64,000 bases of DNA. It comes from Candidatus Omnitrophota bacterium (GTDB lineage Bacteria; Omnitrophota; Gorgyraeia; 2-01-FULL-45-10). Position 1 is the stretch's first letter, and each line of letters starts with the position of its first letter. A program made the position numbers and the translations under genes. Shown here one piece after another: positions 25,054-40,365 of the stretch. The notes beneath the pieces are model-generated. The model was not told the DNA's origin and ran no database searches. It was given only the letters and a program-made list of their open reading frames with translations. The stretch spans positions 1,856 to 65,855 of the forward strand of contig JAPLME010000011.1 in the NCBI GenBank assembly GCA_026387175.1. Reading direction: 5' to 3'.

Positions 25054-26415
25054 ATGACAAGACGAAGAATGAAAATCATAGGCATATTATTGCTGCTTAT
25101 TTTCATCTCAAGCGCGGGTTACGCGGATGTTAAGCTGAAGATAGCCATTGTCAACCCATCCCCGACAGATAGACAGACCTCACCCATAAGGTACGACCTT
25201 CCTAAGGGTATCGGCCCGGAACAGGTTATCGATATAGGCAAGCTGGAGATGAAATATGATTTTGACAAGGGCAATTATTACCTTGCCGGCACCGTGACGC
25301 TCGAAGCGTCGGAGAGGAAGGTCCTCGAGATAGCGATCCGCGATGTCTGGGGCATCCCGGAAAAAGACCTGGATAATTTAAAGAGCCACACGGATATGTT
25401 GGTGAAAAGGCTGAAGGATACAAAGCATTTCAAAGCCGGCGCCGAACTCTCTAAAAATATTATCAAACAGCTGGACACCATGATCACGGAAGAGAAAACG
25501 GCCGGCGCGAATACGCGGGAGCGTATAAACCAGTACTATGAGAATGAGGTGGTCCTGAGCGAGGTCAAAGAAAATATAGGCATGCTCGAAAACCTGGTCC
25601 TTGACGCGGGCGGCGTCGTAGAGGACAGGGTCCAGATACCTACCACCCTCGCGATTCCTTTAAGGGGGGAATCTCTCTCGAGCGACAAAGATATTATCGA
25701 ATTAAAAATAAAGGCGGTTAACCCATCGACAAAAACAAAACAGATCACGCCGGTAAGATATTCCCTGCCGGCCGAAATAAGCCCCAGATATATAATGGAC
25801 AGAAACGGCCTTAATATGGCCTACGATTTTGATAAACAATGCTTTTACCTTTACCAGGACGATTTGGAGCTGGGCCCGGAGCAGTCCAAGGAGTATGTAG
25901 TAAAGATAAGAGACATATGGAATATATCAGATACAGAATTGGAAGCGCTCAGGTCGCATACCGATAATATAATGCTGCTTCTCCAGGGCACCGACTATTT
26001 AAAGCAAGCGCAGGTCTCCGCGGATAAGGTCAGCGCCAATATTGACGATATAGTCAGGACTCAAGCCGCCAAGGTTTCGGCCATGGAACATATAGCCTAT
26101 TACCGCGATAATGTAAAGTTACTGCGGGACGTTAAAAAGATGATAGCCGAACTGGAAAAGCTTGTCAGCCAGAGAGGTGTGACTGCCGGCGTTACGGTGA
26201 AGTGGCCGGAAGAAGGCGGAGGAGGGCCGCTGGCAAGAAGGGCCAAGGGCTATAAAGGGTTGGACCTGATAGCTAAATCCATCTTCAGGGGGCAGGCCCC
26301 TACGGTTGCCACCACCTGGAAGGTAATTTTTGTAATAATCGGTTTCATAGGAATTATTGCCGCATTTTTCTTCGCGGTATGGTATATTCAACTGAAGAGG
26401 GCGGGGAAGAAATAA
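25054..26415 (+). CDS. Hypothetical exported, membrane-anchored protein with an internal tandem duplication of about 200 aa (453 aa)
   Basis: GAGG RBS 8 nt upstream. It lies 22 nt after the giant ORF stop. N-terminal signal peptide (MTRRRMKIIGILLLLIFISSAGYA) and C-terminal TM (VIFVIIGFIGIIAAFFFAVWYI + RAGKK). The two halves align (DVKLKIAIVNPSPTDRQTSPIRYDLP versus IELKIKAVNPSTKTKQITPVRYSLP; LDNLKSHTD versus LEALRSHTD). Confidence 0.6.
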   Translation: MTRRRMKIIGILLLLIFISSAGYADVKLKIAIVNPSPTDRQTSPIRYDLPKGIGPEQVIDIGKLEMKYDFDKGNYYLAGTVTLEASERKVLEIAIRDVWGIPEKDLDNLKSHTDMLVKRLKDTKHFKAGAELSKNIIKQLDTMITEEKTAGANTRERINQYYENEVVLSEVKENIGMLENLVLDAGGVVEDRVQIPTTLAIPLRGESLSSDKDIIELKIKAVNPSTKTKQITPVRYSLPAEISPRYIMDRNGLNMAYDFDKQCFYLYQDDLELGPEQSKEYVVKIRDIWNISDTELEALRSHTDNIMLLLQGTDYLKQAQVSADKVSANIDDIVRTQAAKVSAMEHIAYYRDNVKLLRDVKKMIAELEKLVSQRGVTAGVTVKWPEEGGGGPLARRAKGYKGLDLIAKSIFRGQAPTVATTWKVIFVIIGFIGIIAAFFFAVWYIQLKRAGKK

Positions 26416-26426
26416 TAAAGGCTGTA

Positions 26427-26660
26427 ATGTTTAAAGCCACAATCGTAACTCCCAATAAAGTATTGTTCGATGGTGAGGCCTGGAGCGTTTTTTTGCCCGG
26501 GGCTACCGGTGAGTTTGAAATTCTGGAGATGCATAAGGCGATCGTGAGCCTTTTGCGTCAGGGAAATATTGTGATTAACTGGGATATAGAGATACCGGTA
26601 ACCAGCGGCGCGGTCAGGATGTCCGGCGATGAGCTGGTGGCGATAGTAGAGTCAGATTAG
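26427..26660 (+). CDS. atpC: F-type ATP synthase epsilon-like subunit, N-terminal beta-sandwich domain only (77 aa)
   Basis: MFKATIVTPNKVLFDGEAWSVFLPGATGEFEILEMHKAIVSLL matches the epsilon N-domain pattern (GEA..V.LPG..GEFGIL.GH). The start was moved from the track's 26379 to the ATG at 26427 to avoid overlapping the upstream gene. The protein lacks the C-terminal helical hairpin. Confidence 0.55.
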   Translation: MFKATIVTPNKVLFDGEAWSVFLPGATGEFEILEMHKAIVSLLRQGNIVINWDIEIPVTSGAVRMSGDELVAIVESD

Positions 26661-26662
26661 AG

Positions 26663-26689
26663 CAGCTTTCAGCAAAAAACTGATAGCTG
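26663..26689 (+). promoter_or_regulatory. Intergenic RNA stem-loop (10-bp stem with one mismatch, 7-nt A-rich loop) between atpC and atpF
   Basis: cagctttcag-caaaaaa-ctgatagctg. The same motif recurs after atpD. Confidence 0.35.
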
Positions 26690-26705
26690 TAACAAGGAGT
26701 CATAA

Positions 26706-27422
26706 ATGGTATTCCAACTAGTCGTAGTCCAGATAGTGACCTTCATCGCTATCGTCTTTGTGTTGAGGAAATTGTTATATTCCGAATCCGCCAAAGAGAT
26801 GCTCCGCTTGCGGAAGATCAAGGAAGAGACCGCGGTGAAGCAGAGAGAGCTGCAGCAAAAGATCGACGAAGCGCAGGATGCTTACAGCGAAAAGATCGCC
26901 GAAGCGGAACAGAAGACGCGGGCATTCCGTATTAAAGCGGAAGAAGAGATCGAGGAATTAAAGAAGAAGATATTGAGCAAGGCCAAAGAGGATGCCGAGC
27001 AGATAGTGAAATCCGCTTTCAATGCCAAAGAGAAGATCCGCGAAGAGATCGGCGAAGAGATGCGTAAGAAGGCGCCTCTCCTTGCCTCGCGGGTTTTTAA
27101 GGAAGTCCTTTCTCCGGAGGTCCAGGAGATGATGCATAAGGAATTAGTCAGGGATGTGATAGATAAGATAAGGAATACCGAGAAGACGGCCTTTAAGTCC
27201 AAAATCGAGAAGGGGGAGATCGTTTCGGCGTATCCTTTATCGAAAAACGATAAGCTCGTGGTGGAGTCTCTTATACACGATAGCCTCGGATACCAGATCC
27301 CTTTATATGAAACAGAAGACAGCCAGCTTGTAGCGGGCGTCCTTATCAAGCTGGGCACCATTTTAATAGACGGGAGCCTGAATAACAGGCTTAAACAGGT
27401 CGAGAGGGAGTTGGAATTTTAG
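26706..27422 (+). CDS. atpF: ATP synthase subunit b-like (N-terminal TM plus charged coiled coil) with a delta/OSCP-like C-terminus
   Basis: AAGGAG RBS. TM MVFQLVVVQIVTFIAIVFVL followed by a long E/K-rich helix. The C-terminus AGVLIKLGTILIDGSLNNRLKQVEREL resembles the delta C-terminal motif (G.....G....DGS....L). Confidence 0.55.
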   Translation: MVFQLVVVQIVTFIAIVFVLRKLLYSESAKEMLRLRKIKEETAVKQRELQQKIDEAQDAYSEKIAEAEQKTRAFRIKAEEEIEELKKKILSKAKEDAEQIVKSAFNAKEKIREEIGEEMRKKAPLLASRVFKEVLSPEVQEMMHKELVRDVIDKIRNTEKTAFKSKIEKGEIVSAYPLSKNDKLVVESLIHDSLGYQIPLYETEDSQLVAGVLIKLGTILIDGSLNNRLKQVERELEF

Positions 27423-27434
27423 AGAGGCGCTGAT

Positions 27435-27647
27435 ATGCGAAATCTTATAATAATTCTGGTGATGTTCGTTACGATACTCGGGCCCTCAGCGGTCATCGCG
27501 GCCATAGGCTTTGCCTCGATAAACGCTTTGGGAAGGAACCCGTCATCCGCTCCGAAGATATTAAGCGCGATGATAGTTTCCCTGGTATTTGCCGAAGCCA
27601 TCGCGGTGATCGCTCTTCTGGTATTGTTCCAGTTATTTGGGAGGTAA
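27435..27647 (+). CDS. atpE: ATP synthase subunit c (70-aa two-helix proteolipid)
   Basis: GAGAGG RBS. Helix-loop (GRNP)-helix architecture with a conserved carboxylate in helix 2 (VFAEAIAVIALL). Its position lies between the b and alpha genes. Confidence 0.7.
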   Translation: MRNLIIILVMFVTILGPSAVIAAIGFASINALGRNPSSAPKILSAMIVSLVFAEAIAVIALLVLFQLFGR

Positions 27648-27661
27648 GGCAAACCGCTATA

Positions 27662-29164
27662 ATGAAGACTGAATCTGTATCCATAGGGGAGATCGGGCGC
27701 ATAAAGGAGATCAAGAAATCTATCGTCACGATAGAAGGCCTTCACAACTGCATGCTGGGTCAGCTGGTGACGTTTACAGACGGCACTAAAGGTTTTGTGA
27801 TGGGTTTCAATGAAAACGAAGTCCTGGTGCTGCTTTTAGGAATTTCGAAGACATTAAAAGCCGGCAATGAAGTCTATTCCAGGGAAGAGTCCTTTAAGAT
27901 ACCGGTGGGAAATAATTTTTTGGGCCGTATCGTAAACCCGCTATGCGAGGGCCTGGACGGGAAGGGATACGTCAAGGAGGATTCTTTTGCCTATATATTC
28001 AGGGACGCGCCGGCGGTCCTCGATAGAGAGCCTGTCAATGAAATGCTGGTCACCGGGATAAGGATAGTCGATGCCACCATACCCATAGGTAAAGGACAAA
28101 GACAGCTTATCATAGGCGATAGAATGACGGGTAAGACATCGATAGCCGTCGACGCTATATTGAACCAGAAGGGTAAAGATGTCATATGCATATATTGCTG
28201 TGTGGGCCGTGACTACGCCTCGTTTGAAAAGGTCGTAGGCACTTTTAAAGAGAAGGACGCCCTCGATTATATGATAGTTGTGGCGGCTCTCGCTTCTTCT
28301 TCTATCGGAGAGCAGTATCTCGCCCCCTACGCCGCCGCGGCGTTGGGCGAATACTTCATGTACGCGGGCAAGAATGTCCTTATCGTTTTTGATGACCTTA
28401 CCAAACATGCGTGGGCATACAGAGAGTTGTCCCTTCTCCTGGAAAGGCCGCCCGGCAGAGAGGCTTATCCGGGAGATATATTTTACCTGCACGCTCAGCT
28501 TATGGAGAGAGGCGCCCGCCTGTCGTCACATAACGGCGGCGGCTCCATGACATTCCTCTCGATAGCGGATACCCTGCAGGGCGATATCTCCGGGTTTATA
28601 CCGACGAACCTGATCTCAATGACGGACGGGCAGATATACCTTAACTCCGCGTTATTCGGAGAGGGGTTCAAGCCCGCGATAGACATAGGGCTCTCCGTCT
28701 CGCGTATCGGCAGCAGGGTACAGTCGAAGACCTTAAGGGAATTGACGAAGAACCTCAGTTTAAAATATGTCCAGTACAGGGAGCTTCTGAAGACCACGAG
28801 ATTGAAGTCGGGTATCTCCGAAGATATGACCGGCCGCCTGAAGCACGGCGAGAAGATCGAAAGGATCTTCATGCAGGATAAGAACAGCCCGTCATCTCTG
28901 GCGGAGCAGCTTATCCTGTATTTCGCGCTTGAGACCGGGGCGCTCGATATCCTGTCGAACGAAAAGTGCGACTATTTCAAAAAAAATATATTAGCTTTCG
29001 CCAGGCAGGATATTCCGGCAGTGGTTGAGAACATGGAAAAAGGCGCCGAGATGACGGCCGAGGACAGGGAAGCTATTAAAAAATGTATAATGAATTTTAA
29101 CCATAAGTTGTGGGCATCCGAGGGTGAAACCGCGCCCATCTCCGCAGCCGAGGCCGCGGAATGA
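27662..29164 (+). CDS. atpA: F1 ATP synthase alpha subunit
   Basis: P-loop GDRMTGKTSIAVDAILNQ (alpha-type GDRQTGKT), N-terminal beta-barrel, 500 aa. Confidence 0.9.
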   Translation: MKTESVSIGEIGRIKEIKKSIVTIEGLHNCMLGQLVTFTDGTKGFVMGFNENEVLVLLLGISKTLKAGNEVYSREESFKIPVGNNFLGRIVNPLCEGLDGKGYVKEDSFAYIFRDAPAVLDREPVNEMLVTGIRIVDATIPIGKGQRQLIIGDRMTGKTSIAVDAILNQKGKDVICIYCCVGRDYASFEKVVGTFKEKDALDYMIVVAALASSSIGEQYLAPYAAAALGEYFMYAGKNVLIVFDDLTKHAWAYRELSLLLERPPGREAYPGDIFYLHAQLMERGARLSSHNGGGSMTFLSIADTLQGDISGFIPTNLISMTDGQIYLNSALFGEGFKPAIDIGLSVSRIGSRVQSKTLRELTKNLSLKYVQYRELLKTTRLKSGISEDMTGRLKHGEKIERIFMQDKNSPSSLAEQLILYFALETGALDILSNEKCDYFKKNILAFARQDIPAVVENMEKGAEMTAEDREAIKKCIMNFNHKLWASEGETAPISAAEAAE

Positions 29165-30048
29165 AGGCGCGGGAGATAAAAGAGGACCTCCTCTTCAATA
29201 CCGAATTCATGGGCCTTCTCGAAGTGATGAAGAATATAGCGATTTCTCAATTCCGGTCCCTTCAGAAGAAGAGGAGCAGGTTTATCCGGTTCACCCAGCT
29301 TTTGAACGGTTTTTTTCAGATGGTGGATATCAGGCAGGCCCCGCACAAGTTAATAAACCCAAAGACAGAGAAGAGGGCGATCGTATCGATAACCTCCGAC
29401 GAGGGCTTTATGGGGGACCTGAATTTTCAGGTCGTGGACGCCGCGATCATGAAAGGAGGCCCCGAATCCGCTGAGATTATCGTAGTAGGAGAGTCGGGGG
29501 TAAGGTATCTGAAAGATATGGGAAGAAAATTTACCGCGTTTAAAAACGCCGCCGACGCCGAAGCGAGACATACCGTCGCCGTGGAGCTGAAGAATTATAT
29601 CATGCGAGGCATCGCTGAAGACCGTTTCGGCAGGGTGTCCGTTTACTATCCTAACCCGATCTCATTCATGATCCAGAAAGTGGAAGCCGTGGAGCTTCTT
29701 CCCCTCACTGCCTTCTTTTCGCCGCAGGCGCAAGGCCCGGGATACGATCAGCAGGTGATAGTAGAATCGCCGGCGGAGGGCATAATAGAATACCTCGCCG
29801 AGGAATTTATCGAACAAAAACTGATGGAGCTTCTCGAAGACAGCAAGCTTTCAGAGTTCGCCGCGAGAGGCGCCCACCTCGAGCGGAGCGGCCAGGAGCT
29901 CGCCGAAAAACAGAAACGGCTCAGAGCCCAGTATTTTCACGCTTATCATGAAGTCATAGACAAAAATACCAGAGAACTATTTTCCTCGCAGATTATCATA
30001 AAGCGGAAGGCCAAAGAGGTATCCGCAGCGCTGAATCTTAAAGTATAA
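29161..30048 (+). CDS. atpG: F1 ATP synthase gamma subunit
   Basis: The ATGA start overlaps the atpA stop. The protein is 295 aa, sits between alpha and beta, and has the coiled-coil termini typical of gamma (C-terminus ...LNLKV). Confidence 0.8.
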   Translation: MKAREIKEDLLFNTEFMGLLEVMKNIAISQFRSLQKKRSRFIRFTQLLNGFFQMVDIRQAPHKLINPKTEKRAIVSITSDEGFMGDLNFQVVDAAIMKGGPESAEIIVVGESGVRYLKDMGRKFTAFKNAADAEARHTVAVELKNYIMRGIAEDRFGRVSVYYPNPISFMIQKVEAVELLPLTAFFSPQAQGPGYDQQVIVESPAEGIIEYLAEEFIEQKLMELLEDSKLSEFAARGAHLERSGQELAEKQKRLRAQYFHAYHEVIDKNTRELFSSQIIIKRKAKEVSAALNLKV

Positions 30049-31453
<1,405 letters not shown>

Positions 31454-31455
<2 letters not shown>

Positions 31456-31494: not shown

Positions 31495-33201
31495 ATGGCG
31501 TTACGATTGGGAGATATTTTAGTCGAGAAGGGAATAATAACGCAGGAGGAACTCAATACCGCTCTTGCGGAGCAGCAGAGGACGAAGGAGGCCCTGGGGC
31601 AGATATTGATCAGGATGGGTTTCGTTGCGGAGAGAGATATGCTTCAGATCCTGGCGAAACAGCAGGGTATCCCGTTCGTCGAGCTGAAGATGAAAGATAT
31701 TGATGATAAGGTCCTGAAGAATGTGCCCGCCAAATTTGTCTGGCACTATAAGATAATGCCGATAAGCCTCGACGGCAATATCCTTACGGCCGCCATATCC
31801 AATCCGTTCGATATGTGGCCGATCGACGACCTGGAGACGCACCTCGGGTTCAAAGTGGAGAAGGTCCTGGCTACGTCCGCGGATATAATGGAGGCGATAA
31901 AGAAATATTACGGGGTAGGAGCGGAGACGATAGACCGTATATTATCCGATGATGTGCGTCCCGCCGGAGAGACATCCACCGCGGGAGAAGAAAAAGTAGA
32001 GGACCTCGAAAAACTGGCGGAATCGGCTTCGGTGATAAAGCTGGTGAACCAGATATTGCAGGAAGCCATAACGGACAGGGCGACGGATATACATTTTGAA
32101 CATTTCAGGGGTGAACTGGTCCTGCGTTACAGGATAGACGGCATACTGTATGATACGCCGGTCAGCGAGAAGATAAAATATCTCCATCCGGCGATCGTCT
32201 CCAGGATAAAGGTCATGTCGGGCCTCGATATCGTCGAACGCAGGCTGCCTCAGGACGGCCGCGCGAAGGTGAAGATAGGAAAGAGCGAATATGAGCTGCG
32301 CGTGTCGATAATGCCGACGCTCTACGGCGAGAATATAGTCATAAGGGTCCTGCCCACCACGATGCTTTTCAATATCGCGGATCTGGGTATGTCCCATAAC
32401 GACAGGAGCATCATCGAGCAGCTGCTGAAAAAATCGCACGGCATAATCTTTGTCACGGGCCCGACGGGCAGCGGCAAGACCACCACCCTGTACGCCTGTC
32501 TCAGCAAGCTGAACTCGCGGGAAAGAAAGATCCTTACCATCGAGGACCCGATCGAATATGAATTGGGCGGCATCTCGCAGACGCAGGTCAACGCGAAGAT
32601 AGACCTTACATTCGCCAAGATGCTCAGGAGCATGCTGAGGCACGACCCGGACGTGATGATGGTCGGAGAGGTCAGGGACCTGGAGACCGCCGAGATCACT
32701 ATCCAGACGGCCCTCACGGGGCACCTGGTATTCTCCACGCTCCATACAAACGACGCGGCAAGCGGCGTGACCCGTTTAGTTGATATAGGCATAGAGCCGT
32801 ATCTGGTGGCCTCTTCCGTTATAGCTTTTATCGCGCAGAGGCTCGTCAGGGTCATATGCGCTGCTTGCAAGGAGAAAGTGACGCTGGCAGAGCTGGGTTT
32901 TAAAAACGATCAGTTGAAGATCGAGGGATTCGACTCGAATCACAACACTGTTGTATATAGAGGTAAAGGCTGCAAGGCCTGCGGCGGCACCGGTTACGTA
33001 GGCAGGGCGGCCATATATGAGATCTTATTGATAAAGGATGAGATCAAGGACCTTATTTTAACTAAATCGCCGGCGCATATCATAAAAGATAAAGCCACGC
33101 AGCTCGGGATGCATACCTTAAAGCAGGATGGATGGGACAAGGTGGTGGCGGGCGTAACCACGCCGGAAGAGGTATTGAGAGTGACACAGCTGGAAGGATA
33201 A
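31495..33201 (+). CDS. gspE: T2SS/type IV pilus assembly ATPase (GspE/PilB family)
   Basis: AGGAG RBS. N-terminal T2SSE_N domain, Walker A GPTGSGKTTT, tetracysteine CAACKEK...CKACGGTG. Confidence 0.9.
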   Translation: MALRLGDILVEKGIITQEELNTALAEQQRTKEALGQILIRMGFVAERDMLQILAKQQGIPFVELKMKDIDDKVLKNVPAKFVWHYKIMPISLDGNILTAAISNPFDMWPIDDLETHLGFKVEKVLATSADIMEAIKKYYGVGAETIDRILSDDVRPAGETSTAGEEKVEDLEKLAESASVIKLVNQILQEAITDRATDIHFEHFRGELVLRYRIDGILYDTPVSEKIKYLHPAIVSRIKVMSGLDIVERRLPQDGRAKVKIGKSEYELRVSIMPTLYGENIVIRVLPTTMLFNIADLGMSHNDRSIIEQLLKKSHGIIFVTGPTGSGKTTTLYACLSKLNSRERKILTIEDPIEYELGGISQTQVNAKIDLTFAKMLRSMLRHDPDVMMVGEVRDLETAEITIQTALTGHLVFSTLHTNDAASGVTRLVDIGIEPYLVASSVIAFIAQRLVRVICAACKEKVTLAELGFKNDQLKIEGFDSNHNTVVYRGKGCKACGGTGYVGRAAIYEILLIKDEIKDLILTKSPAHIIKDKATQLGMHTLKQDGWDKVVAGVTTPEEVLRVTQLEG

Positions 33202-33214
33202 CAAAAATCTACTG

Positions 33215-34480
33215 ATGCCGATATACAGTTATACCGCAAAAAAAGGCCCGACCGAAATAGTAAAAAGCGAGATAGAGGCCGAATCTGAGGATAAGGCCGT
33301 CGTCATGATAGAGGCTATGGGGTTCTTTCCCATCAAGGTGGTTGAATTAAGACCGCCGTCGGCGACGCCAAGGGCGCCTGAGCGCGCCAAGCCGGAAGCT
33401 CCGCCAGTCGCCGCTAATAAAGAACAGGGCCTCTCTTCAGTGAAAGTCGGCGCGCATGATATGGACACCTTCATGTGGCAGCTGGCCAGCCTGATAAAAT
33501 CGAGCATTCCTCTCCTGCGCGCCTTATCCCTGATAGCGCGGCAGACTAAGAATAAGTCGCTTAAGGCGGTGGCCGGCGACCTGGAGCTCAAGATAAAGCA
33601 GGGAGAGCTGCTCTCCGCGGCGATGAGCAAATACCCTAATCTCTTTAATAACCTTACCGTAAATATGATAAAGGCCGGAGAGAAGAGCGGTTCTCTCGAC
33701 GAAGTGCTGTATAAGCTGGCGGAATACCGCGAGAAAGAGCAGGAGATGAAGCGCAAGATACAGTCGGCCCTTGCCTATCCGATGGTCGTTGTCGCGGTCG
33801 GTATAGGGACGATATTTATGATGTTCACGTATTTTCTGCCCAAGCTGCTGAAATTATTCGAGAATATGAAACAGGAGCTGCCGCTGCCTACGAAGCTATT
33901 GATCGCGACCAGCAAATTTATGTCCAGTTACTGGTATGTATTTGTAATAGGCATCGTTTTCGTGATCGCGGTAATCTTCAGAAATAAACCCGGAAGTAGG
34001 AAGAAGTTTATGCTCGACATGTTCTGCCTGCGCGTGCCTTTTATCAATAAATTTATAAAGACATCCGAGATAGCGCGATTTGCCAGGTCGCTGGGGCTCC
34101 TGCTTAAAAACGGCATACCCGTCTATGAGAGCCTCGATCTCGCGGCTAAGACGCTGGATAATCAGGCGCTGAAGACGCAACTGGCGCAAGCATCCGCGGT
34201 TATCGTTAACCAGGGCTGCACGATATCGGAAAGTTTCAGGCGCACAGGAGTGTTCCCGGAGTTCACGATAAATATGATAGCGGTAGGCGAGGAAGGCGGG
34301 AGACTGGAGGAATCGCTCGCCGAGATAGCCGCCTCATATGAAAAGGAAGTGGAACAGACCATAAAGGTCATGACATCGATGATAGAGCCCCTGCTGATAC
34401 TGATCGTCGGGGGATTTGTCGGCTTCATCGTATTCGCGATGCTCCTTCCTATATTGAATATGGGGGGGATGGGCGGATGA
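33215..34480 (+). CDS. gspF: T2SS/T4P inner-membrane platform protein (GspF/PilC family)
   Basis: 421 aa with a duplicated GspF domain, three TM segments and a GxxxxEE-like motif (IAVGEEGGRLEESL). Confidence 0.85.
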   Translation: MPIYSYTAKKGPTEIVKSEIEAESEDKAVVMIEAMGFFPIKVVELRPPSATPRAPERAKPEAPPVAANKEQGLSSVKVGAHDMDTFMWQLASLIKSSIPLLRALSLIARQTKNKSLKAVAGDLELKIKQGELLSAAMSKYPNLFNNLTVNMIKAGEKSGSLDEVLYKLAEYREKEQEMKRKIQSALAYPMVVVAVGIGTIFMMFTYFLPKLLKLFENMKQELPLPTKLLIATSKFMSSYWYVFVIGIVFVIAVIFRNKPGSRKKFMLDMFCLRVPFINKFIKTSEIARFARSLGLLLKNGIPVYESLDLAAKTLDNQALKTQLAQASAVIVNQGCTISESFRRTGVFPEFTINMIAVGEEGGRLEESLAEIAASYEKEVEQTIKVMTSMIEPLLILIVGGFVGFIVFAMLLPILNMGGMGG

Positions 34481-35253
34481 GCTTGGCGCTGAAGGTATGT
34501 CTATTCCTTCTCCTCCTGTGCCCGGGGGCGCGGGCCGAGAATTGGCAGGAGTTAAAGGGTGAGCATTTCGAGATATTTTATATCGAGGATCCAGCCTTCG
34601 CGCAGGAGACGCTGACGCAGGCCGAGAAATATTACGAGAAGATAGCCTCGGACCTGGGTTATTCAAGATATGATAATTTCTGGCAATGGGATAACAGGGC
34701 GAAGATATATATTTACAAAAACCGGGAAGATTTTTTAAAGGCCACCGGTAAGAAGCCATGGATTTACGGGACCGCGATATATAATGAACGGACGATAATA
34801 AGCTACAGATGGAGCCAGGGATTCTTTGACATATTACTGCCTCACGAGCTGGGCCATCTCATATTCAGGGATTTTGTAGGGTTTAAAGGGGAGGTCCCTC
34901 TGTGGCTGGATGAGGGCATTGCTCAGTGGGAGGAGACCAACAAGCGCCAGCGGGCGATTTATATGGTCAGGAGCCTTGTCGCCAAAAAAGAATTCATACC
35001 CCTGACCGAATTGATGCGCTTCAATTCGAGCAGCGAGAATGATTTTGCTCTCTCCGCCAAACTTTACGCCCAGGCGGTCACGCTGGTAGGCTATCTTATA
35101 GAGAAGTACGGCCCGACGAGATTCGCGCAATTCTGCCGGAGTCTGCGCGATGGAAAGAGCATAGACGAGGCGCTGTCATTCGCTTATACCGATTCAATAC
35201 GGAATATAAACGAACTGGAAAAAGGATGGATAAAGTACTACGGAGGAGAATAA
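34477..35253 (+). CDS. Secreted HExxH zinc-metallopeptidase-like protein (peptidase MA-like) embedded in the pilus/T2SS operon
   Basis: The start overlaps the gspF stop (ATGA). Signal peptide MSLALKVCLFLLLLCPGARA. HELGH motif in LLPHELGHLIFRDF with a downstream Glu (WLDEGIAQWEE). Confidence 0.55.
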   Translation: MSLALKVCLFLLLLCPGARAENWQELKGEHFEIFYIEDPAFAQETLTQAEKYYEKIASDLGYSRYDNFWQWDNRAKIYIYKNREDFLKATGKKPWIYGTAIYNERTIISYRWSQGFFDILLPHELGHLIFRDFVGFKGEVPLWLDEGIAQWEETNKRQRAIYMVRSLVAKKEFIPLTELMRFNSSSENDFALSAKLYAQAVTLVGYLIEKYGPTRFAQFCRSLRDGKSIDEALSFAYTDSIRNINELEKGWIKYYGGE

Positions 35254-35254
35254 G

Positions 35255-35674
35255 ATGACGGGAAGAAAAAAAGGCTTCACCCTTATTGAACTTATGATAG
35301 TCGTGGTAATAATAGTGGCGCTGGCGTCGATGGTCGTGCCGCGCTTAAGCGGACGTACGGAACAGGCTAAAAAAGCCGTCGCGAAAGCGGATATCGGTTC
35401 AAACATATCGATGGCGCTGAAGTTATACGAGCTTGATAACGGGAATTTCCCCACCACGGAGCAGGGCCTGGCCGCCCTGGCCTCTTCTCCATCCTCCGCG
35501 CCCGTTCCCAGCAACTGGAACGGCCCATATCTTGAAACCATACCTGCGGATCCCTGGGGCAACCCTTATAAATATAAATGCCCGGGCAGTCATAATAAAA
35601 CGACCTATGATCTCTATTCGGTAGGCAAAGACGGCTTGGAAGAAACGGATGATGATATCAAGAATTGGAAATAG
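35255..35674 (+). CDS. gspG: Major pseudopilin / type IV pilin-like protein (GspG family)
   Basis: Prepilin leader and N-methylation motif MTGRKKGFTLIELMIVVVII, 139 aa. Confidence 0.85.
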   Translation: MTGRKKGFTLIELMIVVVIIVALASMVVPRLSGRTEQAKKAVAKADIGSNISMALKLYELDNGNFPTTEQGLAALASSPSSAPVPSNWNGPYLETIPADPWGNPYKYKCPGSHNKTTYDLYSVGKDGLEETDDDIKNWK

Positions 35675-36152
35675 GGTATCCGGCTCAAGACGCGGGTTCA
35701 CGCTTCTCGAAACGCTGATGGCCATCTCCATTTTAGCCGTAGGGACGGTCAGCGTCCTTCGGGCCTATTCTACATCGGTAAGCGCCATCGAAAGGGCGCA
35801 GTATAATATAGACGCGGGTTGCCTATTGAAGTCAGTCATGGGCCTTATCGAGGAGAAGGCTATCACCGGAAAGGGGACGTCGCCGGGCGAGTCATCCGGC
35901 GAGTTAAACTCTTCATCCGGTATAAAGATGGACACGACGCAGTCGGATAAATGGGAATGGAGCGAAGAAGTGAAGGATGCCGGCCTCGAGATAAAGAAAC
36001 CGAAAGAAACGCCCGCATCGGGGGAGAAGAAGCCGGAAAAAGAGGTCTATTCCTTAAACGAGGTCAAGCTTACCGTCGTGAACCACGAACGGAGCCCGTC
36101 GAATAAAGTAAGCGTGATAACGTACATGGAGAACAGCAGTGCCGCGCGCTGA
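35649..36152 (+). CDS. Minor pseudopilin (GspH/GspI-like)
   Basis: GFTLLETLMAISILAVG prepilin-type N-terminus. The start is uncertain because the leader before GFT is long with the 35649 ATG, which overlaps gspG by 26 nt. Confidence 0.55.
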   Translation: MMISRIGNRVSGSRRGFTLLETLMAISILAVGTVSVLRAYSTSVSAIERAQYNIDAGCLLKSVMGLIEEKAITGKGTSPGESSGELNSSSGIKMDTTQSDKWEWSEEVKDAGLEIKKPKETPASGEKKPEKEVYSLNEVKLTVVNHERSPSNKVSVITYMENSSAAR

Positions 36153-36885
36153 CGGGGCCAAAGGCTTTACGCTGGTGGAGATGATGCTGGCGGCGGGCAT
36201 ACTGGCGATAATAGGATTAACCATAGTCTCGACTTTTTCCGGCGGGATGAATATTTTTTACAGGATAGAGGGCCAGACCGCGGCCAAAACGGATGTGCTC
36301 GTCGCGATGGAGAAGATGGAGAGGGACCTGAGAGACACATTCTGTTACACCGGCATAGACTTCATCGGCAGCTCCAGGAAGATGGCCTTTCCCGGCCTCA
36401 TAAGGGCATTCAACGATAAGGGCTTGCCCGAGGAGTCGCTGGGCTCGATCTCGTACTATCTCGACGATAGGATGAGGAAAAGGGCCCTCTCCAGAGAAGT
36501 GAAAAGATATTCTTATGCCGTCAAAAAAGAAAGTTCCCCGCCAGGCGACATTCTGCCCTTGGCGGAGATAGAGGATGTGAATTTCAAATATTATACCTAC
36601 GATCCGGAATCGGAATCTTACAACTGGGCGAGTTCATGGGATAAGACCGAAAAGATAAAGAAGAAGAAAGAGGAGGGGGTCGCGACCGGCGACGTGCTCC
36701 TTAAAGACAGAGAAGAGAACATCCCTCTGGGGGTCAAGATTGAAATAAGCTATAAGGAGAACGGCAGGACTATTACGCTGAACAGGGCCGTATTTTTGCC
36801 GACGGCCGTATCATTGAACCTCGCGAAGATAAAGGCAAAGTCTAAAACGGCGAACGCGACAGGGGCGGCGAGTGAGAAGAAATAG
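36139..36885 (+). CDS. Minor pseudopilin (GspJ-like)
   Basis: MPRADGAKGFTLVEMMLAAGILAII prepilin-type N-terminus, 248 aa. Confidence 0.6.
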   Translation: MPRADGAKGFTLVEMMLAAGILAIIGLTIVSTFSGGMNIFYRIEGQTAAKTDVLVAMEKMERDLRDTFCYTGIDFIGSSRKMAFPGLIRAFNDKGLPEESLGSISYYLDDRMRKRALSREVKRYSYAVKKESSPPGDILPLAEIEDVNFKYYTYDPESESYNWASSWDKTEKIKKKKEEGVATGDVLLKDREENIPLGVKIEISYKENGRTITLNRAVFLPTAVSLNLAKIKAKSKTANATGAASEKK

Positions 36886-37900
36886 AAGAGGGAGCGTCCT
36901 TATCGTGGTCCTGTGGAGCCTGTTCTTTATGGCGATGCTTGCCGTGGCCATAAATTCATATGTCCGGCCGCAGATGGAGTTTTCAAGCAGGTTATCGGCC
37001 AATACCAGGATGTATTATATCGCGCGCGCCGGGGTCCAGAGGGCGATCTTCGAGGTCGAGAACGATGAAACCGAAACGTACGATAGCCTGTATGACTCAT
37101 GGGGCAACAACGACGCGGCTTTCAATAATGTGTCCTTTGGCGGCGGTAAGTTCAGCGTTATAAGGCCGGAGCCGCCGGGCCCCTCCGCCGGCAAGGGGAC
37201 CAGCGCCGCCCAGGCGGGCGAATCCAAGCCGCAGTACGGCCTTATAGACGAGGAGAGCAAGATCAATATAAATAAGGCCCCGCATGACGTCCTGAAGAAT
37301 TTATTTGAGAAGATGGCCGGGGTTGAGTCGAAGGAAGCAGACGGTATAGCGGATTGTATACTGGATTGGGTCGACAAGGACGACTCGCTTCATAAGGACG
37401 GTAAGGAAGACGACTATTACCAGTCGCTCGGCGATCCCTATCATTGCAAAAATGGCCCTTTTGAGGCCATAGAAGAGCTTCTCCTTGTAGCGGGAGTGAC
37501 GCGGGAAAGTTTCGATAAGGTGAAGGATATTATTACGATATACGGCAATGGCACAGTTAATGTCAATACCGCGGACGCGCGGGTGCTGGAGGTCCTCGGC
37601 TTAACTAAGGAGGCCTCCGAAAGCATAGTAAGCTTCCGTTCCGGACGAAATTCAAAAAAAGAGGGAGAGATTCCGGACAATGTCTTTACGAATGTTTCGG
37701 CGATAGCGGGTGTGTTGAACAAGGCGGGCGCCAGTGATGGCGGCGCCAGCCTCATCAGCGCCTCGGCGATGCTCGGCGTGAAATCCGATAATTTCAGAGG
37801 CACCGTTAAGGGTTCGCTCGGGAGCTCGGGGCGATCGGAGACGATAACGTTCGTGTACGACAGAAATGATAAGATAATAAAGTACTGGAGAGAAGAATGA
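36872..37900 (+). CDS. gspK: Minor pseudopilin GspK-like
   Basis: N-terminus RRGSVLIVVLWSLFFMAMLAV is typical of GspK. 342 aa. Confidence 0.6.
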   Translation: MRRNRRGSVLIVVLWSLFFMAMLAVAINSYVRPQMEFSSRLSANTRMYYIARAGVQRAIFEVENDETETYDSLYDSWGNNDAAFNNVSFGGGKFSVIRPEPPGPSAGKGTSAAQAGESKPQYGLIDEESKININKAPHDVLKNLFEKMAGVESKEADGIADCILDWVDKDDSLHKDGKEDDYYQSLGDPYHCKNGPFEAIEELLLVAGVTRESFDKVKDIITIYGNGTVNVNTADARVLEVLGLTKEASESIVSFRSGRNSKKEGEIPDNVFTNVSAIAGVLNKAGASDGGASLISASAMLGVKSDNFRGTVKGSLGSSGRSETITFVYDRNDKIIKYWREE

Positions 37901-39414
37901 TCGGCGGCATAAAAAGTTTCATAAATAATATAAAGATACCGCGCTTTCCGCGAAATATGAAATTCATGAAATTTGATTTTAAGGCCGGCGCCGTCGCGGT
38001 GGAGATAGGGAACGACTGGCTGAAGATATCCCAGAAGAGCCCCGCCAGGGGTAACGAGTTCATCTACCAGATCAGCCTCACCAAGCTGGCTGAGATCAAA
38101 GGCGGAGTAGCGCTCGCCATAGACGATATCTTCAAGGACCTCAAGCTTGACAGGCAGCATGTGGTAGCCTATATCCCGCGCCATCTGGTCACCGTGCGCA
38201 TGCTGGACCTGCCCGCCACGGATCCCAAAGAGATAAATGATATGATCAATCTGCAGGTGGGTAAACAGACGCCCTATTCGAAGGAAGAGATAGTGTCGTC
38301 GCATAAGATAATAGAGATCGGCGCCGCCGGATATGCCAAGGTTATGCTGGTCATAGCGGCGCGCAATATCATCAACGAACGCACGGATACGCTTGTAAAG
38401 GCCGGCCTGGACATAAAGAGGGTCGCCATATCTTCCGAGGGAGTTTTCAACTGGTTTACCACCATTCACATGCCGCGCTTAAAACTGGATGATTCTCAAG
38501 GTGTGGTAGTGGTGGATATAGATTCCAACTATTCGGATTTCATAGTTATACGCAGAGGGAAGATGGTCTTTACCAGAAACATATTCATAGGCGCAAATCA
38601 CCTCATGCAGGACTCGGACGAGTGGCGGGATAAGTTTGCGGAGGAATTGAAACGGTCCTTCGAACGGCACCAGAGCGAGGAAAAGAACGTAAAGATAGTA
38701 AAGATGTTTTTGAGCGGCGCGGGAGCGAATATAAAAGGGCTGGATATTGTCTTGAGCGCCGGCATCGGGCTCCCCATTGAGGGCATAGACCAGCTTAGCG
38801 ATATCCGCGCGAGAAATAGCATCGAAGCTTTGCGGGCCGAGAATTTCAGGTACGTTTCGCTGACCCAGCTTCTCGGGGTGTCGATGACCGACAAGGAGCC
38901 GCAGATCGATCTCACGACCGGCGAGCAGAAGGTCCAGCATCTGATGGACACGAAGAGGAAACAGCTTACCGTAATGGGGATATTGATAGCATCGATCGTT
39001 ACAATGCTGTCGTTCCTGTGCCTGACGGATATTTATAATAAGAACGCGTATCTATCGAAGCTGAAACGCATGGCGACAAAGATAGGCGCGGACGCGGATG
39101 ATATCGAAAAGATGCGGGCGGTGATCAGCCTGGTGGAGAAACGCCTGGATTCCCGCGGTTCTTCGATAGAGGTGATAAATGAGATATACAAGATCACCCC
39201 TAAAGAGATATATCTTACGGATATAAATATAGACGAAAAACAGACGGTGGTTCTGAAGGGCGGGGGCCTCGCGATGTCGGACGTATTTAAATATGTCAAG
39301 AAGCTCGAAGAATCGGATATGCTCGAGAATGTCAAGACCACATACACGACGACCAAGAAAGATAAGGATACCGAATTCGCGGAGTTTGAGATATCCTGCA
39401 CTTATCAAAAATAA
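37897..39414 (+). CDS. gspL: GspL-like assembly protein (PilM-like actin-fold N-domain fused to a PilN-like TM and periplasmic domain)
   Basis: 505 aa. Cytoplasmic actin-like region, mid-protein TM LTVMGILIASIVTMLSFLCL, C-terminal periplasmic domain. Confidence 0.6.
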   Translation: MIGGIKSFINNIKIPRFPRNMKFMKFDFKAGAVAVEIGNDWLKISQKSPARGNEFIYQISLTKLAEIKGGVALAIDDIFKDLKLDRQHVVAYIPRHLVTVRMLDLPATDPKEINDMINLQVGKQTPYSKEEIVSSHKIIEIGAAGYAKVMLVIAARNIINERTDTLVKAGLDIKRVAISSEGVFNWFTTIHMPRLKLDDSQGVVVVDIDSNYSDFIVIRRGKMVFTRNIFIGANHLMQDSDEWRDKFAEELKRSFERHQSEEKNVKIVKMFLSGAGANIKGLDIVLSAGIGLPIEGIDQLSDIRARNSIEALRAENFRYVSLTQLLGVSMTDKEPQIDLTTGEQKVQHLMDTKRKQLTVMGILIASIVTMLSFLCLTDIYNKNAYLSKLKRMATKIGADADDIEKMRAVISLVEKRLDSRGSSIEVINEIYKITPKEIYLTDINIDEKQTVVLKGGGLAMSDVFKYVKKLEESDMLENVKTTYTTTKKDKDTEFAEFEISCTYQK

Positions 39415-39426
39415 CGGGAACCGAAC

Positions 39427-39972
39427 ATGATCAATATGGAATTTTTTTATAAATTATCGAAGAAGGAAAAGATAGGGCTGATGGCGGCCATCGTAGTCAT
39501 AGCGCTTATGCTCATCGACAGGCTCGTCATAAGCCCCATAGGCAACAGGATCCAGCGTATAGACCAGGAGATAAAATTCAGCGAGAAAAAATTGAGCCGC
39601 GACCTGCGTAATATGAATAATAAGGATATCATCGAAAGAGAGTATAAGAAGTATAAAAATTATGTGAAGAAGAGCTCCGTCTCGGACGAAGAAGATGTGG
39701 CAAATATACTCGGGGAGATAGAGGGCCTGGCGCGTTCATCCAGCGTCAGCCTGGTCGATATAAAGCCGCAGGCTCCGAAGCGGGCCGATTTTTACAAAGA
39801 GTACGCTATCGAGGTGGAAGTGGAAGGCAGCATGGAACAGGTCATCACTTTCCTGCACGACCTGAATAGCTCCGCGCAGTTATTGAGAGCGGTGAAACTC
39901 CGTATCGGTCTTAAAGACAAAGAATTATCCGCTATAAAAGCGTCCCTCCTTGTGACCAAGATCTCAATATAA
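39427..39972 (+). CDS. GspM/PilO-like bitopic assembly protein
   Basis: 181 aa. N-terminal TM IGLMAAIVVIALMLI, coiled coil, and a C-terminal alpha/beta domain. It is the last gene of the operon. Confidence 0.5.
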   Translation: MINMEFFYKLSKKEKIGLMAAIVVIALMLIDRLVISPIGNRIQRIDQEIKFSEKKLSRDLRNMNNKDIIEREYKKYKNYVKKSSVSDEEDVANILGEIEGLARSSSVSLVDIKPQAPKRADFYKEYAIEVEVEGSMEQVITFLHDLNSSAQLLRAVKLRIGLKDKELSAIKASLLVTKISI

Positions 39973-40011: not shown

Positions 40012-40043
40012 CCAATAGGGGAAGTGTCCCCTTGGCCGTTTTT
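40012..40043 (+). terminator. Rho-independent terminator ending the giant-gene/atp/T2SS co-directional gene block
   Basis: ccaa-ta-gggga-agtg-tcccc-ttgg hairpin followed by ccg-ttttt. It overlaps the stop of the convergent minus-strand gene. Confidence 0.4.
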
Positions 40044-40365
40044 ACCGCGGTGACGTAGCTATCTGCGAGAATTTTTCCGGGTGTTTTATGAAATGCTTTG
40101 CGCACGCGTCACAGCACAGATTGTAGATCTTGCCCTTATATTCGATTTTGATGCAGTTGGCCTTATCGATATCATCGTCTGAAACCGGGCAGCGGAAGTT
40201 CTTTACGCTTTCAGCCGTGCTGCTTACCTGTTCTTCTTTTGTCAGGATTTTAGCCTCGTCACTCTCATCCCCGCATACACCGTTTCCAGCCCCGATGCCT
40301 GCGCATAAAAGCAGGGCTAAAGCTATTATAAAGACACTTTTTTTCAATATATTAAATATATTCAT
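40042..40365 (-). CDS. Small secreted Cys-rich YHS/TRASH-like domain protein
   Basis: Signal peptide MNIFNILKKSVFIIALALLLCAG. C-terminus KGKIYNLCCDACAKHFIKHPEKF resembles the YHS metal-binding domain. It is the only minus-strand gene in the window. Confidence 0.5.
   Translation of the reverse strand: MNIFNILKKSVFIIALALLLCAGIGAGNGVCGDESDEAKILTKEEQVSSTAESVKNFRCPVSDDDIDKANCIKIEYKGKIYNLCCDACAKHFIKHPEKFSQIATSPR

Follow-up and report, generated by a model that had tools for sequence, protein, structure and literature searches.

A signal peptide-bearing gluzincin encoded between gspF and gspG is a candidate accessory peptidase of a T2SS-like pseudopilus module in Omnitrophota

The gene lodged between gspF and gspG in this uncultivated Omnitrophota bacterium, represented by a metagenome-assembled genome (MAG), encodes a zincin that, judged by its sequence, is a clan MA gluzincin of family PF13485, and we regard it as a lineage-specific accessory gene of a T2SS-like machine. 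We tentatively favour, without calling it probable, a role for the protein in the periplasm as an accessory peptidase to the pseudopilus module, of which we infer the periplasmic location, the catalysis and, above all, the substrate. The zincin gene would be co-transcribed with gspG and probably translationally coupled to it, and its Sec-exported, soluble product, most likely periplasmic, would have as its substrate a protein associated with that module. The candidate substrates are the pseudopilins or the tip complex, through turnover, trimming or length control, or else a protein exported by the machine. In the 64,000-nucleotide stretch analysed here, which we call the window, the gene and its neighbours are arranged as follows.

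26379–31455, + strand: F-type ATP synthase genes (epsilon N-domain, b/delta fusion, alpha, gamma and beta), directly upstream
31495–33201, + strand: gspE, encoding an ATPase whose N-terminus carries a c-di-GMP-binding MshEN domain (NF053729, 71.5 bits; cutoff 38)
33215–34480, + strand: gspF, platform protein of 421 aa (two PF00482 matches, E 6e-61)
34477–35253, + strand: zincin coding sequence, 258 aa, ATG start (PF13485, Peptidase_MA_2)
35255–35674, + strand: gspG, major pseudopilin (TIGR01710, 159.9 bits; cutoff 88.85), with GGAGGAG 5′ of the start
35649–36885, + strand: two minor pseudopilin genes (N_methyl; 167 and 248 aa), whose homologues in related loci match T2SSJ
36872–37900, + strand: gspK-like gene, tip pseudopilin (PF21687, E 8e-19)
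37897–39972, + strand: PilM–PilN fusion (GspL-like) and PilO (GspM-like), by profile matches
40016–40034: terminator-like hairpin, 3′ of the PilO gene

The zincin start codon overlaps the TGA stop of gspF in an ATGA tetranucleotide (34477–34480), and the zincin TAA stop (35251–35253) is followed by a single spacer base and then by the gspG ATG at 35255, the second base after the stop. Both junctions are thus as described in an earlier, sequence-only reading of this DNA, which had reported the ATGA overlap and a gspG start 2 nt beyond the zincin stop. The identical 4-nt overlap between gspF and the zincin gene is found in 14 related loci, and ATGA or 1-nt overlaps are recurrent. The linkage of ATP synthase and T2SS genes also recurs in related loci, forming a conserved supercluster. 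GspG itself is canonical in sequence, with no unusual extension and no obvious cleavage site. Neither the 64-kb window nor the 10 kb around each cluster examined contains a secretin or GspC gene, and the window has no A24 (GspO/PilD) gene; gspD has been reported in other Omnitrophota loci (10.1101/2023.11.21.568195). A giant gene, the ATP synthase genes and the T2SS genes together make up an unusual supercluster in Omnitrophota, and two Omnitrophota giant-gene preprints, one of them that just cited, treat nearby secretion loci and not the zincin gene.

A Pfam profile search matched zincin residues 75–253 to positions 21–200 of the 201-position PF13485 profile and scored 65.1 bits, above the Pfam gathering threshold of 32.4 (E 1e-17), placing the protein in the Peptidase_MA_2 family, one of those that the sequence-only reading had named for a profile search. 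NCBIfam profiles assigned no family, and NCBI holds an identical protein under the name 'peptidase MA family metallohydrolase [Candidatus Omnitrophica bacterium]'. Homologues number 1112 in a set of 5.8 billion proteins, and the subfamily, 264 clusters (50% identity) at E≤1e-30, consists of compact single-domain proteins of about 260 aa that occur almost only in Omnitrophota T2SS-like clusters. A chance ORF or pseudogene is ruled out by homology and conservation, and a recent horizontal insertion by GC and GC3 values equal to those of the adjacent genes. Three features of the protein bear on its export and chemistry.

34477–34536, + strand: predicted Sec (SPase I type) signal peptide, residues 1–20, read from the sequence, with cleavage after A-R-A and before E21-N-W
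34843–34857, + strand: HELGH, predicted zinc-binding and catalytic motif (residues 123–127; H123, E124 and H127), invariant in alignments A1 and A3
34912–34914, + strand: E146, in W-L-D-E-G, likewise invariant in A1 and A3 and predicted to supply the third zinc ligand

The signal peptide, the HELGH motif with its downstream Glu and the lack of a transmembrane segment, all of them noted earlier, are upheld by the PF13485 match, the motif alignment and hydropathy. The N-terminus, MSLALKVCLFLLLLCPGARA followed by EN, combines a hydrophobic core with an A-x-A site, and 86 of 88 family members share this arrangement (hydrophobic core, AxA, then [EQD]-x-W) according to a heuristic that is not a trained predictor. 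The mature protein, of about 28.2 kDa and pI 5.6 (computed), contains no hydrophobic window of transmembrane grade (maximum 19-aa Kyte–Doolittle mean 1.38). It also has no propeptide, which would be more in keeping with a periplasmic enzyme of narrow specificity than with a broad exoprotease. With an N-terminal Sec/Tat-type signal, on the heuristic call, and a soluble folded domain, the protein has two of the attributes expected of a T2SS substrate. A lipoprotein is unlikely, the Cys in the signal-peptide core being unconserved. As a substitute prepilin peptidase the protein has the wrong topology and the wrong chemistry, with no transmembrane segment after the signal peptide, no A24 Pfam match and a zincin fold instead; removal of the prepilin leader is beyond a metalloenzyme that is soluble and exported.

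The predicted active site reads HExxH-x18-E, the spacing found in family M1, and the HExxH motif singled out in the sequence-only reading is conserved among orthologues. His-Glu-His and Glu are kept in 104 of 104 near-full-length relatives, 102 of which have the exact x18 spacing; the other two carry a loop insertion and keep all four residues. Together with H123, E124, H127 and E146, the alignments show Y197 to be invariant. A degenerate, non-catalytic zincin is ruled out, every ligand being invariant, and the active site appears intact, so far as sequence can tell, in a protein that is probably catalytic. An AF2 model (pLDDT 90.1, pTM 0.83) predicts a thermolysin-like fold of two subdomains, a beta sheet with the active-site helix and then a helical lower subdomain, and matches the catalytic domains of families M9, M1 and M30 with a Foldseek probability of 1.00, M9 and M1 being the best. 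At the sequence level, a search against the PDB returned just weak M1 matches over the active site (E 0.01), and PF01433 (M1) scored 16.3 bits against a cutoff of 27.7, matching residues 122–159 alone and missing the family threshold. The exopeptidase motif of M1, G.MEN (GxMEN), is present in 0 of 101 relatives, the equivalent strand reading GTAIY in this zincin and G-M-A-D-Y in most relatives. We regard the protein as a minimal gluzincin, an M1-like catalytic domain without accessory domains.

Of 77 evaluable loci anchored on the zincin, 75 have gspG as the next gene downstream and 61 have gspF as the next gene upstream, and the gspF–zincin–gspG order recurs in many species-level Omnitrophota genomes. 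Inserted two-component genes fall between gspF and the zincin gene and leave the zincin–gspG pair unbroken. The pair is also kept without the ATP synthase genes at loci L050 and L152, and at L041 it stands alone among unrelated genes, with no other T2SS gene. The gspF–zincin–gspG arrangement raised in the sequence-only reading is maintained at the junction in all close relatives examined (anchored on GspG of at least 73% identity or on a T2SS-cluster zincin), but it does not extend to all of the phylum. In more distant Omnitrophota with an otherwise identical operon order, gspF abuts gspG with no zincin gene between them, and one lineage has a zincin, 58% identical to that of the window, outside T2SS clusters, where its gene lies 4 nt upstream of an M48 peptidase gene and beside glycan-utilisation genes, a context assembled independently in at least 4 samples. 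Among GspG-anchored loci, 35 of the 57 evaluable have no zincin within 6 kb, and longer contigs reveal relocation to the head of the same ATP synthase–T2SS cluster in one to three lineages (L161, L162 and L164). At L165 and L166, two further lineages, the zincin is absent within 10 kb of gspF. A core T2SS component would be generally present, in all operons of the kind, and the zincin is not; because its position is kept in most, not all, relatives, it is a lineage-specific partner or cargo of the machine.

We compared evolutionary distances in a partial Mantel test over 49 loci, which is exploratory and does not fully correct for phylogeny. The zincin distance residuals covary best with GspK (r 0.48–0.49, permutation p≤0.0005) and show no covariation with GspF or PilMN in the same exploratory test. 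Median identity is 48% for the zincin versus 37% for GspF and 31–36% for GspK and the GspL-like and GspM-like proteins.

An accessory role draws on the near-constant gspG directly 3′ of the zincin gene, on the insertions and the L041 locus that leave the pair intact, on the lineages in which the gene has left the junction yet remains inside the cluster, and on rates that covary with GspK and not with GspF or PilMN; the lack of a secretin or GspC in any cluster examined also argues for it. Working against this role are the operons of identical order without a junction zincin, the two lineages without one nearby, the gene beside an M48 peptidase far from T2SS genes, the canonical GspG without an obvious cleavage site, and a covariation test that is exploratory and incompletely corrected. 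We know of no T2SS or type IV pilus system that requires such a protease, and the most specific form of the proposal, a dedicated protease made in step with GspG that cleaves pseudopilins or the GspK-capped tip in the periplasm to control pseudopilus turnover or length, strikes us as distinctly unlikely. A serious, if somewhat unlikely, rival is that the zincin is itself cargo, an exoprotease that is Sec-exported, folded in the periplasm and pushed out by the T2SS-like machine, for example against host or prey surface proteins, and co-expressed with it like SslE in E. coli. This rival is serious because it has a precedent, missing from the earlier note: sslE encodes a secreted, M60-like zincin and is transcribed with the cognate T2SS genes (PMC5012682, PMC4014459), and the head-of-cluster zincins of L161, L162 and L164 mirror its placement. 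The zincin is a small soluble hydrolase with a signal peptide, and a gene whose place and occurrence vary between lineages is more typical of cargo than of core parts; the covariation with the tip pseudopilin GspK is likewise compatible with a substrate touching the tip, and Omnitrophota have been proposed to be predators or parasites with exported degradative proteins (10.1101/2023.11.21.568195). However, neither a secretin nor GspC turned up in the window or up to 10 kb from the clusters examined, known cargo genes sit at cluster edges and are not overlapped between gspF and gspG, the zincin–gspG pair travels as a unit, the protein has neither a propeptide nor a binding module, and its conservation is high for a host-facing effector.

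The zincin could instead serve housekeeping or quality control in the periplasm as a general peptidase, without a specific part in the T2SS. Its location would then have been handed down from a compact and ancient superoperon that grouped envelope genes (ATP synthase and T2SS) in small genomes. The cluster does mix unrelated housekeeping genes, with the ATP synthase interleaved with gspE and gspF, and the zincin has been lost from it in some lineages and adjoins an M48 peptidase gene in another with no T2SS genes near; but we consider this reading unlikely, given a subfamily almost confined to the T2SS-like cluster, at two distinct positions, a zincin–gspG pair that persists without the ATP synthase or without other T2SS genes, and rates that follow GspK rather than GspF or PilMN. 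Still less probable is that the zincin processes a giant surface protein of several thousand residues encoded at the cluster head, cleaving it or releasing fragments. Large ORFs do lie upstream of the cluster, of 8303 aa in the window, 12301 aa at L161, 4230 aa at L164, 3457 aa at L166 and 1660 aa at L163, and at L161 and L164 the zincin gene is the first one after the giant gene, yet the head-position zincin of L162 has no giant gene upstream, L166 has the giant gene without a zincin, and in most loci the zincin gene is at least 9 kb from the giant gene and joined to gspG instead. We give hardly any credence to a peptidoglycan-remodelling peptidase that would open the wall for assembly of the machine. 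This idea rests on analogy with the dedicated wall-lytic enzymes of flagellar, T3SS and T4SS clusters and would suit an exported protein encoded inside the operon of a trans-envelope machine, but the fold and motifs are those of an M1-/M9-like gluzincin and not of the peptidoglycan peptidase families M15, M23 or M74, and the zincin has no peptidoglycan-binding domain.

To our knowledge, the membrane prepilin peptidase is considered the only dedicated protease that T2SS and type IV pilus machines require. A zincin beside gspG across much of the phylum would point either to an unrecognised accessory activity or to a conserved dedicated cargo in Omnitrophota, which are ultra-small, probably host-dependent bacteria. 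The question bears on how T2SS pseudopili shorten or clear without a retraction ATPase, and if the turnover proposal were true, a T2SS-like machine lacking that ATPase would gain a proteolytic means of resetting or disassembling its filament. A literature search for PF13485/Peptidase_MA_2 returned a single, irrelevant paper, so that the family has essentially no characterised member and almost nothing published, and searches on a zincin of the Omnitrophota T2SS or on periplasmic proteases for pseudopilins gave nothing pertinent; either reading would provide the first functional handle on this family. Small, soluble and confidently modelled, the zincin should be a tractable target.

The best Foldseek matches of the zincin model are M9 collagenases (ColT, ColG, ColH and Vibrio collagenases; E 5e-6, query-normalised TM-score 0.55–0.63), which are secreted gluzincin endopeptidases with just 14–17% identity to the zincin and no sequence-level match in a PDB sequence search. 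The M9 enzymes are larger and multidomain, and their third zinc ligand is spaced differently. The M1 aminopeptidases (puromycin-sensitive aminopeptidase, IRAP, ERAP and LTA4H) share with the zincin the HExxH-x18-E site, the W-L-x-E-G context and a Glu at +7; their HELAH and WLNEG align to its HELGH and WLDEG, the catalytic domains are structurally similar, and the M1 catalytic Tyr probably corresponds in position to the invariant Y197. Unlike the M1 enzymes, the zincin lacks the N-terminal beta domain and the C-terminal helical domain. In E. coli, SslE/YghJ is a zincin with an export signal encoded in one transcription unit with a T2SS (PMC5012682) and secreted by T2SS-beta. SslE is a lipoprotein of another zincin family (M60-like) encoded at the head of its operon, and the T2SS that secretes it includes GspC, GspD and a pilotin, whereas the window's zincin has no secretin nearby and is encoded between gspF and gspG. 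SslE is about 1500 aa in length, in contrast to the 258 aa of the zincin. GspO/PilD (A24), the only dedicated protease that we know of in T2SS and type IV pilus systems, is an aspartyl protease with a polytopic membrane topology that acts at the cytoplasmic face; the zincin, as the sequence-only reading had maintained, is distinct from it, being soluble and exported.

The zincin, an exported zinc peptidase, is encoded between gspF and gspG in a T2SS-like operon joined to ATP synthase genes, with the following gene order.

Gene order around the zincin in the window
121-25032, + strand: giant ORF, 8303 aa, first in the window gene order
25054-26415, + strand: protein of 453 aa, separating the giant gene from the ATP synthase genes; it has a signal peptide, two repeats and, at its C-terminus, a TM segment
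26379-31455, + strand: ATP synthase epsilon, b/delta, alpha, gamma and beta
31495-33201, + strand: gspE with an MshEN c-di-GMP-binding domain
directly upstream of the zincin, + strand: gspF, 421 aa, two PF00482 domains (E 6e-61)
34477-35253, + strand: zincin, 258 aa
directly downstream of the zincin, + strand: gspG, 139 aa, NCBIfam equivalog TIGR01710 (159.9 bits, passing the cutoff of 88.85)
after gspG, + strand: two minor pseudopilins
36872-37900, + strand: GspK-like tip pseudopilin, with helix-hairpin-helix PF12836 HHH_3 (E 6e-10) beside T2SSK_1st
after GspK, + strand: PilM-PilN fusion (PilMN, GspL-like) and PilO (GspM-like)
40016-40034: terminator-like hairpin after PilO
40042-40365, - strand: small exported YHS-domain protein just past the operon terminator, in the same place in the related locus L169

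The zincin frame and ATG start are as first read, and both tight junctions hold: the zincin ATG forms the first three bases and the gspF stop the last three of an ATGA overlap, and a single base separates the zincin TAA (35251-35253) from the gspG ATG. GGAGGAG stands just 5′ of the gspG start codon, the zincin start is preceded by a stretch rich in G, and the GC and GC3 of the gene agree with those of its neighbours. No secretin, GspC or prepilin peptidase gene lies within the 64-kb window. The cell is diderm, as judged by LptF/G, a TolC-like OEP and a LamB porin.

The predicted export signal of the sequence-only reading is supported by an N-terminus in which A-R-A|E-N comes after a hydrophobic core, a layout found in 86 of 88 evaluable relatives, where AxA sits just ahead of a conserved [EQD]-x-W. 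The signal core contains a Cys, but its lack of conservation speaks against a lipoprotein. The mature protein (28.2 kDa, pI 5.6) has no propeptide and, as first noted, no TM-grade hydrophobic window; as an exported soluble gluzincin, it was rejected as a prepilin peptidase.

The HELGH motif (residues 123-127) and the downstream Glu, now placed at E146 within W-L-D-E-G, belong to a PF13485 Peptidase_MA_2 domain (65.1 bits against a cutoff of 32.4, E 1e-17), a family that the sequence-only reading named for a profile search and under which the protein is already annotated; no NCBIfam model matches. Among 32 homologues of 49-84% identity, 38 positions are invariant, including H123, E124, H127, E146, E153 and Y197. 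HExxH-x18-E is exact in 102 of 104 near-full-length relatives from the fetched loci, and the other two carry a short loop insertion while keeping all four motif residues. The x18 spacing and W-L-x-E-G context are shared with family M1, and HMMER aligns residues 111-156 with HELAHQWFGN...LWLNEGFASWIE of puromycin-sensitive aminopeptidase. An M1 assignment was nevertheless rejected, as the M1 model stays below its threshold (16.3 bits against 27.7). The exact GxMEN motif occurs in none of 101 relatives; at the corresponding strand most of them have G-M-A-D-Y, and the window protein has G-T-A-I-Y. A confident AlphaFold2 model built on the alignment (pLDDT 90.1, pTM 0.83) resembles M9 collagenase peptidase domains most among PDB entries (TM-score 0.55-0.63, 14-17% identity), followed by M1 aminopeptidases, M30 lugdulysin and an M60-like glycoprotease. 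The zincin is thus a minimal, single-domain gluzincin without a close solved relative. In a library of 50%-identity representatives, its subfamily comprises 264 clusters at E<=1e-30 and the wider family 9007 at E<=1e-3. NCBI has an identical protein whose source is a Candidatus Omnitrophica MAG; every named homologue belongs to Omnitrophota.

A one-genome-per-species scan found zincin relatives in 328 genomes, from which the best 80 loci (62 labelled Omnitrophota) were fetched. Among these, the gene immediately 3′ of the zincin is gspG in 75 of 77 evaluable loci, and the gene immediately 5′ is gspF in 61 of 77. The gspF/zincin ATGA overlap is found again in 14 loci; in 6 the two genes overlap by 1 nt. 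Where gspF and the zincin are apart, a block of histidine kinase, response regulator and REC-PilZ genes fills the gap, and the zincin is still joined to gspG. The E-F-zincin-G order persists without upstream ATP synthase genes in L050 and L152, and L041 has only the zincin-gspG pair, surrounded by sugar-nucleotide and PPIase genes.

GspG was the anchor of a second, unbiased metagenome scan, whose result was more mixed: the zincin is upstream of gspG in 22 loci, absent within 6 kb by tblastn and family HMM in 35, and 23 loci are too short to judge. It is present wherever GspG is at least 73% identical and enough upstream sequence exists. In L084 (GspG 71%) the gspF-gspG gap, about 120 nt by tblastn or 2 nt by ORF calls, leaves no room for a zincin on either estimate. 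Several zincin-less loci keep an identical AtpB-GspE-GspF-GspG-...-PilO order; each of their GspF homologues carries an Omnitrophota label, and a GspE neighbour-joining tree places these loci between two large clades that have the zincin.

Longer contigs from this zincin-less side show further states. In L161, L162 and L164, a 258-261-aa family member (35-36% identity to the window protein; family HMM E 1e-68 to 1e-73), which shares its motifs and has a signal peptide, heads the same cluster, in the order zincin, REC-GGDEF, ATP synthase, GspE, epsilon, GspF, GspG. In L161 and L164 it directly follows a giant gene and fills the slot of the window's 453-aa protein; L165 (Ca. Susulua lineage) and L166, with no zincin within 10 kb, hold a single-repeat homologue of that protein there. 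A further relative, P0054 (58% identical to the window zincin), is not part of a T2SS cluster at all; its neighbours are a CBM11-like gene on one side and an M48 peptidase on the other, with a Y1 transposase near, a context repeated in four or more independent samples. The M48 peptidase of this lineage (282 aa, L168:10785-11633; also L170-L173) starts 4 nt downstream, and a CBM11-like protein and a 2067-aa GH94 enzyme are encoded upstream. Y1 (IS200/IS605-type) transposases beside rearranged clusters or moved zincins (L162:1-678, L167:1207-2124, L168:11961-12599) suggest a route by which the gene moved.

The arrangement is kept in close relatives (L163, L167, L169), but zincin-less operons of identical order and other positions also occur. 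This mixed presence and position makes the gene an accessory of the cluster: it usually adjoins gspG, but in some lineages it sits elsewhere or is missing; a core T2SS role was rejected on the same grounds.

Across 56 complete loci, median identity to the window proteins is 63% for GspG, 59% for AtpB, 53% for GspE, 48% for the zincin, 37% for GspF, 36% for GspK, 34% for PilO and 31% for PilMN; the zincin ranks third of six (GspE, GspF, zincin, GspG, GspK, PilMN) in 52 of the 56. In exploratory partial Mantel tests on 49 loci, controlled by GspE distance or the mean of the other proteins and with relatedness only crudely removed, GspK covaries most strongly with zincin distances (r 0.48-0.49, permutation p<=0.0005). 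PilO and GspG covary weakly, and GspF and PilMN do not.

The surrounding cluster has features of its own. F-type ATP synthase genes are joined into the T2SS-like operon across Omnitrophota (window; L161-L166), with no subunit a gene seen in these clusters, and epsilon lies between gspE and gspF in one lineage (L161, L162, L164-L166). Cyclic-di-GMP signalling recurs as MshEN on GspE, as REC-GGDEF after the head-position zincin (L161:2200-3114), and in other lineages as inserted genes for REC-PilZ and histidine kinase proteins that separate gspF from the zincin (L033:7237-7974). The giant ORF has almost no Pfam matches, only short Amnionless-like repeats and a Big_1 match below the Pfam cutoff; relatives also have large ORFs at this place (L161, 12301 aa; L164, 4230 aa; L166, 3457 aa; L163, 1660 aa). 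The 453-aa protein type, without a Pfam match, is conserved as a signal peptide, one or two copies of a ~200-aa repeat and a C-terminal TM anchor (L163:389-1777, L165:983-1741, L166:224-1003).

The zincin is a soluble gluzincin that is exported and whose active site is intact, its gene kept beside that of the major pseudopilin. It would act in the periplasm and may serve the pseudopilus module. We tentatively favour an accessory periplasmic peptidase, whose substrate could be one of the pseudopilins, a component of the tip or some protein that the machine handles, while holding this at somewhat below even chances. That it is a housekeeping peptidase simply sharing an old superoperon seems improbable, and we give lower weight to processing of the giant protein or remodelling of the cell wall. 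While the organisms are uncultivated, the zincin is small and tractable. We found no published report of this zincin within its cluster. The zincin could instead be cargo of its own machine, which we consider rather unlikely: no cluster seen contains a secretin or GspC, the gene sits within the core block, and the zincin-gspG pair travels together. Its changing position and presence nevertheless fit cargo, as does the precedent of E. coli SslE, a zincin whose gene is transcribed together with those of its T2SS (PMC5012682).
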